From: Haplodiscus bocki
Taxonomy: Eukaryota
Direction of reading: 5' to 3'
Assembly (NCBI GenBank): GCA_965655095.1
Contig: CBFHFQ010000354.1
Span: 1 to 64,000, forward strand
DNA: 64,000 nucleotides
The notes beneath the pieces are model-generated. The model did not search any database. It was not told the DNA's origin and saw nothing but the letters and a program-made list of their open reading frames with translations. Numbering within the stretch: the first letter of the stretch is position 1; every line of letters starts with the position of its first letter. Of this stretch, positions 53,742 to 64,000 are shown one piece after another. Position numbers and translations under genes: made by a program.

Positions 53742-54149
53742 TTACTCGAAATGTGGAGTCAAAAAATATAAATTTTCCTCACCTATAGCAATACTATATG
53801 ATACTAATTTCTTACCCATATTTGAGATGTATTTATATATTTTATCATTAGTTAGAAATGAACAAACCATATCACCTCCAATATATAAGTATCTATGTTT
53901 ATCATTTTCTTCACTTATTTTAAGTAAAATTGTATTCCCATCAAATACTGGTTTGTCAAAAGCTCCTGAAAATGCAGTCATCATACAAGATTCACTCTTA
54001 CCCAAAAAAATTTTCAAAGGCTTTACACAAAATATAGTATTTTTATCATCGTAGATATCTTCAAATTTTTGTACTTTTATCCGTCCATTATTTTGAAAGG
54101 TTACTCCATAACATTTAGTATTACTTTCTGTGACATATATTTTAGTCAT
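53742..54149 (-). CDS. Hypothetical protein resembling a giant-virus (NCLDV) uncharacterised family; probable premature stop
   Basis: FDGNTILL...YLYIG...SF...D.I.KYIS..G....YSIAIGEENLYFL pattern; TAAATG start. Confidence 0.6.
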   Translation of the reverse strand: MTKIYVTESNTKCYGVTFQNNGRIKVQKFEDIYDDKNTIFCVKPLKIFLGKSESCMMTAFSGAFDKPVFDGNTILLKISEENDKHRYLYIGGDMVCSFLTNDKIYKYISNMGKKLVSYSIAIGEENLYFLTPHFE

Positions 54150-54172
54150 TTATATTAAATAAAAATAGATAA

Positions 54173-54427
54173 TCATAATAGTTTACCTTCTAAATAATAA
54201 ATTCTACTAATTTTCATTTTTAATTCTTTATCTAAATCTGTTTTTGTTGTACCCATTATATTTAATAATTCTTTAAGAACAACATTCTGAATTAAAGTAT
54301 CATATCCTATTTTTGATTGATAATTATAAAGTAATCTTTTATATCTATCCAACATATCAATTATTTTAATTTGAAATTTAGGGTCTTTTTTATTTACATT
54401 TATAAAATCATTATAAATATTCGTCAT
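54173..54427 (-). CDS. Hypothetical helical protein
   Basis: 84-aa ATG ORF tightly packed with its neighbours. Confidence 0.5.
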   Translation of the reverse strand: MTNIYNDFINVNKKDPKFQIKIIDMLDRYKRLLYNYQSKIGYDTLIQNVVLKELLNIMGTTKTDLDKELKMKISRIYYLEGKLL

Positions 54428-54461
54428 CCTTTTTACTATTTAACAGAAACAAATAATATAA

Positions 54462-54953
54462 ATGGGTGATTATTTCAATTGTAAGTTATGTGATAAATCA
54501 ATTATGATTAAATCTAACAAGAAACATTTATTTTCTCAATATCATAACATTTTATGTATGAGTATAATTTCTAGATATAGTATTACAAATCCTCATTTTC
54601 TTCAGATTGAAAATATATTAAAAAATTATGTTCTTGATTATAATAAAAAATATGCATTTTTTCTATTTATACGTAAATGGAAATTATTTTTTTCGGATAC
54701 TTTCGCAAAAAATAAATATTATCAGAAACGTGGACATAAATTCTCCCATATATCTGAAATGAATATCACTTTTATAACAGTTTTAAGGAATATGACATAT
54801 GAACACTATCTCATTCAGCCAAAGCCTATGGTGGAATGGATACTTAATAAAAAATTAGCTAAAAATTCAGAACTTATAAAAACGCTCGGAAACAGCTCCC
54901 ATCCTTTAATTAGAAAATATCAACATATTATTGAGGATGACGGAGAAAAGTAA
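54462..54953 (+). CDS. C2H2 (matrin/U1-like) zinc-finger accessory protein, paralogue 1
   Basis: CKLCDK...KKHLFSQYH; C-terminal NMTYEHY..PKPM...N.ELI....HPL.RK shared with 55790-56336. Confidence 0.7.
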   Translation: MGDYFNCKLCDKSIMIKSNKKHLFSQYHNILCMSIISRYSITNPHFLQIENILKNYVLDYNKKYAFFLFIRKWKLFFSDTFAKNKYYQKRGHKFSHISEMNITFITVLRNMTYEHYLIQPKPMVEWILNKKLAKNSELIKTLGNSSHPLIRKYQHIIEDDGEK

Positions 54954-54976
54954 AATCTTTTATATATCATTTCAAA

Positions 54977-55564
54977 TGATCTTATCTGAATAAAAGAATA
55001 GTGATAATTATGAAGTTCTATACTGTCCCGAAGATGATGAGTATCGAGTATATTGCGATATTTGTGATCAACTCTGTATCGAAAGATTTTATAACAATCA
55101 TCTCAAATTACAAACTCATACTAATAACAAACACAAAAGAAAATCATTTCAAATAAATCTACTTTGTAAAGTATGCGATCGATCGATTATCGAAAATCAA
55201 TCTGAATATATGAATTACCTAGCTACTTTACGTAAAAAAAGAAGATAAAAGTTTATATAAAAAATATACTATCAATAACATTAATTTGGATGAAATTAAT
55301 AAAATTTTAAACGATTATATCTCTACTCATAACAAGTATTTTAATTTTTACTTTACTATTTGTGAATTTGTATTAGAATTTGATAATAATTTCATAGCAA
55401 ATACAAAGACTAATTATTTTTATAACACAGATATTACCAATATAAATAAATGTTTATTATATGATATTGATTTTTTTAAGTCAAGTGGATACATGTTTCA
55501 TATTATCAAACAAATGACAATTAATATGATTAGTGATAGATGTAATATGTCAGATGAGAATTAA
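54977..55564 (+). pseudogene. Zinc finger + paralogue 2 of the accessory family, frameshifted
   Basis: YCDICDQLCIERFYNNHLKLQTH, then CKVCDRSIIENQSEY, frameshift in the A-run at ~55235, then ORF 55286-55564. Confidence 0.7.
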
Positions 55565-55599
55565 CATCTTTTATAAATCATTTCAAGTAATCTCATCTA

Positions 55600-61200: not shown

Positions 61201-61204
61201 ATAA

Positions 61205-62541
61205 ATGCCTATTAATGTATTTGGTAATAGTTCGTCTTCACATGATAATGGTAGCAAAAATGATACACCTCTGTTTGTACAAAAACCTTATTCGAGAACG
61301 AATTGTAAAGAAAGTAATATAGAAGAAGACATTGACTTAAAAAATCAATATGAAGTTAAAAATTTACCTCATCCTATCAACACACAAGATGCTTGTAGAA
61401 AAACTATGTTGATAATAAATTCAACGATCCTAGTATATTTAAAAACACTGCACACGTAGATCTGAATGATAGAAACATAACAAACGCTAGATTTATCCAA
61501 GTCAATCAATTTACTCAAATTGATTCTCATTTAACAGCCAAGCTATATGTTGATAATTCTATATACGAGCAATGGTTAGTTAGAAACAATCAAGATAATG
61601 ATTTTAATATTTAAAATCTAACTAAAATAAATAGTATTACTTTAAACACTCAAGCAGTCAAGGATAATCAAGTCATTACTAAATCAAATGTGGCTCATTT
61701 TCATCAAGAAAATGAACGATCACGACGAGATTTAGGAATTGACTTTTATGATGAATCGAGTGATTTGGTAACGAACAATCAAGACAATGATCTCAATGAT
61801 GAAAAATTAACAAATTTGGAAAGTATTACAGTTAATAGAGCACCTACTTTACATAACGAAGTGACAAATAAAAAATATATTGATGATGAAGTAGATAAAA
61901 ATACTATTCTAAAATTTATTCAAACACTACAAAATTACCTCAAAGTATCTGTTGGAAACGACACATACAACCTTACTAAATATGATAAAACACAATTAAC
62001 AGATGTAACAGAAATTAGATCTCCGAATACTGGAATAAGTCTGCTACAAAAGTGGATTACACATTATAAAGATAAAAACAACAATAGTAATTTAGAGAAA
62101 ATTATAAAATCAACAAAAACAAACTCTCCTACTGGTCAGTCGGGAGCAACGATTCTTCCTCCAATAGGTAACAGTTTCATGTATATTGAGACTAGCAACA
62201 ACAATCACGACAATAATGTTTTTGTATCTTTCGAACGAACTGATAAAATTCAAATTTCTAATATAACATTTTATTATAACAGATTTTCAATTTTAACTGA
62301 TGATTCGTTGAAAGCTATGGGGAGGTTCAGGATTCGGTTTTTGGTAGAAGATAATACTTGGAGTACTCAATACACTATACCCAAAAATGATCGATATAGT
62401 GAATCGGAAAGTGAGTGGACTTTACTTAATTTAATTTTTACGGTAGAAAACTATGGTACTAGATTAATTTATGATCAAATTGACACAGCTCATGCCGATA
62501 TGTGTTTTTCAAAGTTTACAATAACACATTCTGTATATTAG
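61205..62541 (+). pseudogene. Putative fibre/spike: four stalk-like repeats plus C-terminal MAM-like beta domain; one frameshift (~61400) and one stop (~61612)
   Basis: Repeats D.N...(I/L)TN...K.Y(V/I)D; C-terminal GNSFMYIETS...ITFYYN...MGRFRI...EWTLL...ADMCFSKFTIT. Confidence 0.6.
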
Positions 62542-62573
62542 TATTCGAATACGTGTAATTATATTTATTTTAA

Positions 62574-62816
62574 ATGAATGATTTAAAATATTTTACAGAT
62601 TTTTTTGAATCAATACCAGATTATACAAAGATTGTAATACTAATGTTTAAAATTAAAAATGATGTTAATTTTTCATACGAATGTGGATTTTTAAAAAGTG
62701 ATATCGACTTTCTATATAAAGAATATAAAAATATTTTACTTGAACTGAATGAAGAATACTTAGACCATATTAAAAATCAAGAAGAAGCAATAATTGAAAA
62801 GATTTTAAATAAGTAA
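62574..62816 (+). CDS. Hypothetical protein
   Basis: 80-aa ORF with TAAATG start; its stop abuts the next ATG (62817), which opens a similar-sized disrupted ORF to ~63035. Confidence 0.6.
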   Translation: MNDLKYFTDFFESIPDYTKIVILMFKIKNDVNFSYECGFLKSDIDFLYKEYKNILLELNEEYLDHIKNQEEAIIEKILNK

Positions 62817-63135
62817 ATGGAAGCTTATTTCAATACGACTTTTGAAGATGTTAGACATAAACATTCGTTAATATTATTATTATCACTAACAGATCCAGAT
62901 ATTTGAAGACAAAGTAAATTTACTGGTGATGAAACAAGTATTATAAAAAATCTCGCTCTTGAAAAATTATATAGACAAAGAATATTAAAAGAACATGTTG
63001 CGATGGATTTGTTAGAAAAACAATTTTCTGATTAATAATTGAGTAAAATCTCGTGAACATAAATGATTTTGGTAACATTGTTATAATAAGATAATTATAA
63101 TGAGTGATTATACAATAGTGTTTTCTGTTTATTAA

Positions 63136-63680
63136 ATGACGACTTATCCAAATTTAAACGAAGCAGAATTATTATAAATGAAAACAAAGGATGATGAAAT
63201 CAAAGGTTTAAAAAATAAAACGGAAAAGCACGATAATGAGAATATACTAAAGAGTCTTAAAATAGATAATGAATATTATAAAAAGAAATACAAAGGTTTG
63301 AATAAAAAGAAATTTTTTTTGATTGTTTCAGAAATTTTGATTGGTTCAGTTGGATTAGGTGTCGGTAGTGGGTTGACTTTATGAGGATTAGCTCCTATTG
63401 GTATTACATGTGCAGGAAGTATTTCATTTTTATCAAGTTTTAGTACATTATTTACGAATGAATATTTTTCGAGATTAAAAATAAGATAGACTAAATTAAG
63501 AGACTGGATTAATGTTATTACTTTGTTATATGAGAAGACATTGACAGAATCTATGATAGATAAAAAGATTGATCAAAAAGAAGCCTAGAAAATGAAACAG
63601 ACTTATAATCATTATATAGATAAAAGAAAAGAAAATATGAACTCAACTAAATTCAAATTCGAAGATATATATTGGTGATT
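63136..63680 (+). pseudogene. Coiled-coil protein with a hydrophobic Gly-rich helical hairpin, several nonsense mutations
   Basis: ...FFLIVSEILIGSVGLGVGSGLTL*GLAPIGITCAGSISFLSSFSTLF...LLYEKTLTESMIDKKID. Confidence 0.6.
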
Positions 63681-63857
63681 CTATATCAAAAAATTCTATT
63701 TCACGTGAACAAATAAGTAAATTGAATAATTTTAAGCCAAAATAATGTGAATATAAATATAATTAACAAATTTATTTATTTTAAACCTAAAAAGAAAAAA
63801 ATATTGATTATCAACCGAGTGCTCCTCCTTATTATGGATAAATTTATGTAAATAAAA

Positions 63858-64000
63858 ATGACAAAGACTTGGTGTGTTGGAGGAAAGCATTATAGTATTG
63901 CTAATAATATAACTCAATATGAAAAAGTAAACCCCAAAACTAAAAAACTAGTTAAAGTTATCAAAAGAACTTGCAGTATTTGCAATCGTAATAAATCACA
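63858..64000 (+). CDS. Small basic zinc-ribbon-like protein, cut by the window end
   Basis: MTKTWCVGGKH...KRTCSICNRNKS. Confidence 0.55.
   Translation, partial: MTKTWCVGGKHYSIANNITQYEKVNPKTKKLVKVIKRTCSICNRNKS

Follow-up and report, generated by a model that had tools for sequence, protein, structure and literature searches.

A vaccinia late-type start motif at the genes of a high-copy Maverick/Polinton family in Haplodiscus bocki points to probable transcription by a poxvirus-like helper

We analyzed a 64,000-nucleotide stretch of the genome of Haplodiscus bocki (the window), which comprises bases 1 to 64,000 of contig CBFHFQ010000354.1 in the 1.5-Gb assembly GCA_965655095.1 and whose right-hand part is occupied by a decayed provirus of the Maverick/Polinton type. 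Our data show that most genes of this element and of its sister copies begin at the sequence TAAATG, and that a patch of T residues centered on the 10th nucleotide upstream of TAAAT (T10) accompanies it. By its sequence features, this bipartite arrangement is the signature of vaccinia virus late promoters. We consider it probable that TAAAT(G) and the T patch constitute a poxvirus-type post-replicative promoter (late, and partly intermediate) that is read by the polymerase of a poxvirus-like helper, not by host RNA polymerase II (Pol II). In addition, some copies of the element carry a gene of the poxvirus Rpo18 type.

The element is a canonical Maverick/Polinton, and the copy in the window is a decayed relic of a high-copy family. 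Similarity to the ends of sister copies starts at ~51,900, where the GC content falls to 0.22 to 0.28, and the provirus (51900..64000, plus strand; ~19 kb in all) has its left two thirds in the window and runs on to the contig end at 70,960, which cuts off its right end. The left terminal inverted repeat (TIR), at 52.55 to 53.17 kb, matches the contig end at 79%. Beyond the window, the remainder of the contig holds an integrase, an HNH-like gene, and a protein-primed family-B DNA polymerase (pPolB). More specifically, the rve integrase homologue lies at contig positions 65150 to 66004 (PF00665, E 6e-10 in a sister copy), and PF03175, the pPolB profile, matches this part of the window's own copy as well as copies of a second lineage described below; a second pPolB type carries an endonuclease VII insert, and PF03175 matches its relatives. 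The morphogenesis set consists of a double jelly-roll (DJR) capsid protein (PF21738), an A32-like ATPase (PF04665), a weakly matched protease (PF00770), and a penton recognized by position only. In the profile search the capsid matched PF21738 (DJR-like) only. The TIRs of sister copies end in AGTAGT, matching 6-bp target duplications flank three of the four copies read at both ends, and the TIR pairs of these four are up to 97 to 98% identical. ATPase matches number at least 150 among the matches listed, from 15,695 first-look candidates; stops in most of them indicate that most copies are broken, and intact capsid open reading frames (ORFs) are kept in many copies. The element has no RNA polymerase of its own, as PF04983 gave five matches at three loci in the assembly, none of them high-copy, and the largest ORF of the element is pPolB. 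The original prediction of an endogenous Maverick-type virus is thus borne out by pPolB, the rve integrase, the TIRs with their 6-bp duplication, and the capsid, ATPase, and protease genes.

The same prediction described TAAATG at the viral gene starts as apparently far above chance. For the window as a whole this does not hold, with 78 occurrences compared to 67.8 ± 8.9 in shuffled sequence (11 of 100 shuffles reach 78). Between 53 and 64 kb, TAA precedes 18 of the 225 ATGs on the plus strand and 12 of the 174 on the minus strand. The signal is positional, and only start-anchored counts carry meaning. Since an in-frame TAA turns any ATG into an "ORF start", which would make the count circular, gene starts were mapped by homology. 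For the capsid lineage to which the window's copy belongs (lineage 1), N-terminal peptides were used as tblastn queries in 17 copies, and the most upstream reachable ATG was taken whatever its context. This analysis yielded 271 mapped starts in 21 families (36 further mapped positions had lost the ATG, and a few rows are cross-hits between paralogues), among which TAAATG is present at 198, TAAAT-ATG at 22, and TAAAT within 15 nt at 227. In comparison, TAAATG was found at 416 of 10,346 other ATGs in AT-rich stretches (4.0%) and at 5.9 to 6.8% of first-ATG-after-stop ORFs in Markov-3 DNA. At mapped starts across the genomic copies, therefore, the claim does stand, with an enrichment of ~tenfold or more over AT-matched background (198/271 versus 4 to 7%). 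The variable accessory region behaves in the same way, with 34 of its 38 ORFs of at least 90 amino acids starting with TAAATG or TAAAT-ATG. Ten true starts of the endonuclease-VII-type PolB have TAAATA 16 to 17 nt upstream instead. A baculovirus-type TAAG initiator was also considered and rejected, being found upstream in only a few families.

Upstream of TAAAT, T occupies the 9th, 10th, and 11th nucleotides at frequencies of 0.71, 0.77, and 0.69 (n = 322 starts), compared to 0.30, 0.29, and 0.27 at internal TAAATG sequences (n = 90). The T content of positions -15 to -12 exceeds that of positions -40 to -21 in 17 of 18 lineage-1 families and in all 11 lineage-2 families. T10 reaches 1.0 for both capsid genes and for the lineage-1 penton gene, and it is present at 10 of the 12 exact TAAATG sites in the window. 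In the description given in PMC11980589, the vaccinia virus late promoter consists of TAAAT, after which the G of the start codon usually comes next, and of a T conserved at the 10th nucleotide upstream that stands out among weaker Ts. Given that asfar- and mimiviruses use other promoter motifs, according to PMC5294985, the likeness can be narrowed to poxviruses.

Three zinc-finger/HNH families form a second class, in which T10 is 0.0 to 0.29, A reaches 0.69 to 0.78 at 12 to 17 nt upstream, and a TTCAA is shared; the Rpo18-type gene has the upstream pattern of this class. Vaccinia intermediate promoters are described as having TAAA without the conserved T and an AT-rich patch 15 to 19 nt upstream (PMC11980589), compared to 12 to 17 nt here. 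The second class may resemble intermediate promoters, and this assignment is only suggestive because the vaccinia intermediate core, which is A/T-rich and lies ~12 bp upstream, has no consensus (PMC12917281) and the DNA analyzed here is ~75% AT.

The signal is also found outside lineage 1. A second lineage in the same genome was found via a distant capsid (25% identical; 104 loci listed) and has a different gene order. In this lineage, TAAATG is present at 124 of 129 starts, representing 15 families in 10 copies (five positions had no ATG). Moreover, three metagenome contigs (L247 to L249) represent one related element, whose capsid is 41 to 43% identical and in which every complete gene has TAAATG. 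With a frame truncated at the contig start and a short antisense frame set aside, all six gene starts of L247 have TAAATG together with T10, and four of them are not of the stop-start type. The metagenome search yielded only these three contigs of one element, an earlier query there having found none. Scans of a viral contig collection found no loci related to the capsid, two capsid alignments, left-arm gene, Rpo18, and ATPase used as queries, and the ESM Atlas gave leads under 0.9 only. The motif comparison covers the elements of this genome and one metagenome element. As for gene content, a lineage-2 copy has a 362-amino-acid ORF (L238:4994-6079) consisting almost entirely of an intein-like Hint domain and a LAGLIDADG endonuclease (PF14890, PF14528), with its own TAAAT-ATG, and the lineage-2 ATPases (L233:6738-7511 and sister copies) have an N-terminal Cys-rich zinc-finger segment that is also found in a separate small gene on the opposite strand. 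The two pPolB types have been swapped between capsid lineages (L031 at contig 67.6 to 70.6 kb, L058, L062, L070, and L244), such that the window's lineage-1 copy has the lineage-2 type and L244 the reverse. One pPolB of 1273 amino acids (L066:815-4633) has an endonuclease VII domain inserted at about residues 516 to 558.

As a host control, we used 28 clear starts (10 tubulins, 8 actin-family, 7 HSP70-family, and 3 histones; 10 loci with no clear start were dropped) of genes that, from familiar N-terminal patterns, we take to be those of the animal. No TAA-ATG preference was seen at these starts (0/28), which have a purine at -3 in 21 cases and TAAAATG in two. These data bear on the possibility that TAA-ATG is a feature of translation or a by-product of compaction, i.e., a Kozak-like A-rich context, stop-start reinitiation, or an upstream poly(A) signal. 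Host starts are indeed often AAA-ATG, the upstream stop is in use at 37 of 198 and 7 of 124 sites, and AATAAATG, which includes the AATAAA overlap, is found at 64 of the 198 TAAATG starts. However, T at -3 runs counter to what the host prefers; TGA precedes 9 and TAG none of the 271 starts; 278 of 322 sites close no upstream ORF (frame of at least 40 codons); the motif is retained where genes are divergently oriented and where it is not in frame with the ATG; and none of these explanations predicts T at the 10th nucleotide. A strong translation-initiation context, which the original prediction had offered as its alternative, fails because TAAAT shifts out of register (at the 22 TAAAT-ATG starts and at the 10 PolB starts with TAAATA) and is accompanied, at a constant distance, by a T patch. 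Translation and compaction are largely refuted as explanations, and we give them very little credence. Because the motif is retained at divergent genes, and because its frame relative to the ATG varies among copies of a single gene, what is conserved is TAAAT as a DNA sequence.

Further evidence of a poxvirus connection comes from the Rpo18-type gene. A search of the assembly with PF03293 (pox Rpo18) gave at least 150 loci among the matches listed, from 456 candidates, with a best E of 3e-20. The corresponding ORFs of ~145 amino acids score 78 to 83 bits on this profile (cut-off 25; E 1e-22 to 1e-23) in all seven cases tested, the match spanning profile positions 5 to 110-124 of 160. The Rpb7-N profile, by comparison, reached at best an E of 0.02, in one of the seven. 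The only significant match of these ORFs in the PDB is vaccinia Rpo18 (E 5e-15 with a single sequence and 1e-19 with a profile). In all six stretches examined, which were chosen near listed capsid loci, the gene lies inside the element, 1.6 to 2.2 kb upstream of the ATPase gene. A ratio of nonsynonymous to synonymous substitution rates (dN/dS) of 0.25 over eight copies indicates that it is under purifying selection in many copies. Judged by these matches and by its location, the gene is a captured poxvirus gene and direct evidence of contact with a poxvirus.

We propose that, in helper-infected cells, the DNA of the element would reach the cytoplasmic factory, where each gene would be transcribed from its own TAAAT. 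Initiation would take place in the AAA, and polymerase slippage would add a 5' poly(A) leader, as described for poxviruses (PMC6211774, PMC5294985). Such a leader would supply the missing 5' untranslated region (UTR), and genes without a 5' UTR would be explained in this way. The element would then replicate with its pPolB, be packaged in its own capsid, and re-integrate via the rve integrase, a life cycle equivalent to that of a mavirus-like virophage on a poxvirus, with the Rpo18 of the element acting on the helper polymerase. The original prediction of a virophage-like provirus transcribed by a poxvirus or another nucleocytoplasmic large DNA virus (NCLDV) gains support from the late-type T10 and from Rpo18; its extension to NCLDVs in general does not, as the evidence points specifically to the poxvirus type.

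Several points weigh against this proposal. Initiation at TAAAT and the poly(A) leaders are predictions from the DNA sequence, and the passage of a silent nuclear provirus to a cytoplasmic polymerase is a step that the proposal leaves unexplained. Ten other poxvirus/NCLDV families gave no matches in the assembly (the control queries were silent too), and the RNA polymerase and family-B polymerase matches there turned out to be either genes of the host or the pPolB of the element itself. Neither the window's copy nor the stretches retrieved for the 27 copies of the initial sample contain Rpo18, and we therefore regard it as an accessory gene of a sub-lineage. Because the copies share ancestry, row counts overstate their independence, and the units to be considered are ~36 gene families (some of them homologous between lineages) and three capsid lineages. 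The host control for start context is small (28 conserved genes), and TAAA-type initiators are also described on yeast linear plasmids that have their own polymerase (PMC6211774). AATAAA occurs in the viral ORFs at 3.1 to 3.6 per kb, tenfold more densely than in the host, and codon shuffling indicates no depletion (observed/expected [O/E] of 0.92 and 1.02); this density appears poorly suited to nuclear expression and is not decisive, given that the host control (O/E 0.89 on 12 sites) is too weak. Depletion of TTTTTNT was dismissed as evidence, since the viral O/E values of 0.74 and 0.48 are accompanied by 0.75 in the host.

One rival explanation accepts the motif as a real initiator and has host Pol II recognize it in the nucleus under the guidance of a factor of the element, which would be autonomous and would owe its poxvirus likeness to ancestry or convergence. 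Some nuclear phase is needed for thousands of germ-line insertions, lineage 2 has a helix-turn-helix protein, and a CxxC..CxxC ribbon in one lineage-1 family weakly matches the TFIIB zinc ribbon (8 of 49 members, best E 0.015), viral TFIIBs being found at ranks 2 to 3 of the Foldseek list, but with an E of 1.6. However, lineage 2 has the same promoters but neither this zinc-ribbon family nor its paralogue. The structural model of the family is poor (predicted local distance difference test [pLDDT] score of 57) and shows no TFIIB or cyclin match, the best Z of 6.6 being to NusB-like helical bundles and within background. PF00352 (TBP) was found at two host loci only, neither of them high-copy, in a search of the kind that, for TBP as for TFIIB, may miss very divergent factors. 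Zero-length 5' UTRs and three AATAAA per kb suit Pol II badly, and nuclear transcription leaves the poxvirus-specific Rpo18 unexplained. Collectively, we consider this explanation unlikely. Transcription by Pol II starts at a characteristic distance from the TATA box; TATAAATG was considered as a TATA box and rejected on this geometry, because the start site would fall inside the ORF. The zinc-ribbon and helical proteins of lineage 1 are paralogues encoded by adjacent genes beside PolB (L037:6118-6633 and L037:5289-6128), in that lineage only.

Another possibility is that dependence on a helper is a matter of the past, i.e., that the helper lineage has gone or changed, the copies now spread as transposons, and the promoters and Rpo18 are fossils. 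Most copies are broken, no helper sequence was found in the assembly, and the TIRs of the window's copy are only 79% alike, which would fit such a history. It is harder to reconcile with the intact capsid ORFs of many copies, with TIR pairs as similar as those reported above, flanked by 6-bp duplications in three of four, and with selection on the motif and on Rpo18 across the radiation. In addition, a self-transposing element would still have to be transcribed. To our minds, a purely past dependence is improbable, slightly more so than transcription by Pol II, and use of the promoters by a poxvirus-like polymerase is preferred over both.

Turning to the individual genes of the window, the 14 sites listed in the original prediction are all present (12 exact TAAATG, TAAAATG at 60797, and TAAAAATG at 63853), and homology to sister copies identifies each of them as a true gene start. 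N-terminal queries or family tblastn mapped eleven (60797 by its position at the protease start), and blastn to 16 to 17 matches in other copies mapped those at 56337, 59301, and 63853. Also as predicted, the preceding gene's stop codon forms part of the motif at 58355 and 62814 only. The two near variants carry no weight as support for the motif, as TAAAATG is likewise found at 2 of 28 host starts. Our analysis adds one start, the TAAAT-ATG at 55785..55792, as well as the T patch 9 to 12 nt upstream of TAAAT.

On the minus strand, the TAAATG at 54147..54152 belongs to a conserved left-arm gene (53601-54149; function not assigned) and has T10; being divergent from the main block, this gene needs no co-oriented upstream gene. 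The model of its protein was unusable (pLDDT 32). The genes that follow are on the plus strand. The first of the block is a zinc-finger family gene (54462-54953) with TAAATG at 54459..54464 and no T at the 10th nucleotide, followed by the paralogous zinc-finger gene (55790-56251) that starts at 55785..55792, where the motif is out of frame with the ATG and the upstream region is of the TTCAA/A-rich class without T10. In this left arm (window positions 54462-56251, and L254 to L263), paralogous zinc-finger genes and small ORFs unrelated to them form an array that can expand, and almost every member has a TAAATG of its own; the start has been lost in two of the zinc-finger paralogues of the window. 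At 56337..56342, the TAAATG of a small broken membrane-protein-like gene is shared with sister copies. An intact A32-like packaging ATPase of 243 amino acids, with its TAAATG, occupies 56547..57281 (PF04665, E 5e-10), and a broken conserved core gene common to both lineages (function not assigned) occupies 57518..58357 with its TAAATG. The following TAAATG, whose TAA is also the upstream stop, opens a broken presumed penton/minor capsid gene (58355..59141), so labeled from its size, position, and sharing between lineages, with no Pfam match. A small basic ORF with TAAATG (59301..59468) precedes the DJR major capsid gene (59520..60799; PF21738), which has TAAATG, is broken by stops and a frameshift, and shows a T run 9 to 12 nt upstream in all 12 of its TAAATG copies.

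The adenain-like maturation protease gene (60797..61200; PF00770 weak, E 0.04) reads TAAAATG in the window and TAAAT-ATG in 8 of 13 sister copies. It is followed by a broken large virion-surface gene, fibre-like by inference, with TAAATG (61202..62541), whose sister copies have TAAATG in 8 and TAAAT-ATG in 6 of 19 cases. Two small abutting genes, each with TAAATG (at 62571 and 62814), lie at 62571..63035, and a broken gene for a predicted membrane protein, common to both lineages, lies with its TAAATG at 63133..63672. Lastly, a small Cys-rich gene (63853..64000) starts at TAAAAATG in the window and at TAAATG in most sister copies. The left end of the element is adjoined by a tandem array of ~16 units of ~1.85 kb each (91 to 98% identical, with a 65-codon frame per unit) at 22100-51600; Rfam gave no match anywhere in the window, this array included. 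A 154-bp tandem repeat of 3.2 copies (52505-53004) lies within the left inverted repeat, and a satellite with a 29-bp period, ~139 copies, and a 59-bp higher order occupies positions 77-4107.

Compared to known Mavericks/Polintons (Polintoviricetes; "adintoviruses", PMC8502044), the element has the same pPolB, rve integrase, A32 ATPase, DJR capsid, adenain-like protease, TIRs ending in AGTAGT, 6-bp duplication, and size of ~19 kb, and it has in addition a poxvirus-type bipartite promoter at nearly every gene and, in some copies, the Rpo18-type gene; the main text of that paper does not use the word "promoter". With the late and intermediate promoters of vaccinia virus and mpox virus (PMC11980589, PMC5294985, PMC12917281), it shares TAAAT(G/A) overlapping the start codon, a T peak at the 10th nucleotide flanked by further Ts, and a second, A-rich class without T10. 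What differs is that here a small integrated virus without an RNA polymerase has this putative promoter type at all genes, including those for polymerase and integrase. Mavirus, which is transcribed in the factory of Cafeteria roenbergensis virus (CroV), and Sputnik (PMC6428243), as well as the polinton-like virus (PLV) Gezel-14T (10.1101/2022.07.28.501842), are likewise small DJR-capsid viruses that share their promoter type with a large cytoplasmic helper, and mavirus also integrates by an rve integrase. According to these sources, their hosts are protists or algae, their helpers and motifs are of the mimivirus type, and the helper has been isolated, whereas the element studied here has an animal host, a poxviral motif, and a predicted helper.

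The entomopoxvirus-associated PLVs AHEV_PLV1/2 and CBEV_PLV1 (PMC11296320) are also Preplasmiviricota elements, proposed as poxvirus parasites that exchange genes with their helper. They are described as ~12 kb in size and as physically present in occlusion bodies; their capsids are highly divergent, and they have either a tyrosine recombinase or no integrase at all, whereas the element studied here is a canonical, high-copy Maverick with an rve integrase. The main text of PMC11296320 does not contain the terms "promoter", "motif", or "RNA polymerase". The yeast cytoplasmic elements pGKL1/2 (PMC6211774) are pPolB replicons with a TAAAN initiator that gives 5' poly(A) leaders, but, as described, they encode an RNA polymerase and a capping enzyme themselves, use ATNTGA as the upstream box, and lack both capsid and integrase. 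Helper-promoter sharing by protist virophages and poxvirus-associated PLVs are thus already known. No publication describing a Maverick with poxvirus-type promoters or Rpo18 came up in a search that left subscription papers and supplements outside, where a supplement could hold such an analysis, and their combination in a Maverick appears to be new.

To our knowledge, how animal Mavericks express their genes, and whether they do so as autonomous viruses or as parasites of a larger virus, is an open question, because none of them has a culture system with a defined trigger. The sequence data presented here name a likely trigger, namely a poxvirus-type polymerase, and if the proposal is right, this animal and the host of the metagenome element should each harbor an as yet unknown poxvirus. 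The combination of TAAATG with T at the 10th nucleotide upstream offers a simple screen by which Mavericks may be sorted by helper type, and the captured Rpo18 points to a route by which a satellite could act on the polymerase of its helper. We also put forward, more speculatively and with considerable doubt, that this clade of animal Mavericks may be true virophages of poxviruses, i.e., silent germ-line proviruses that are switched on by an undiscovered invertebrate poxvirus. Their promoters of the late and intermediate classes would be adapted to the polymerase of this virus, and the captured stalk subunit Rpo18 would redirect or cripple that enzyme. If this were the case, the thousands of copies would constitute an inherited, inducible anti-poxvirus defence in an animal.

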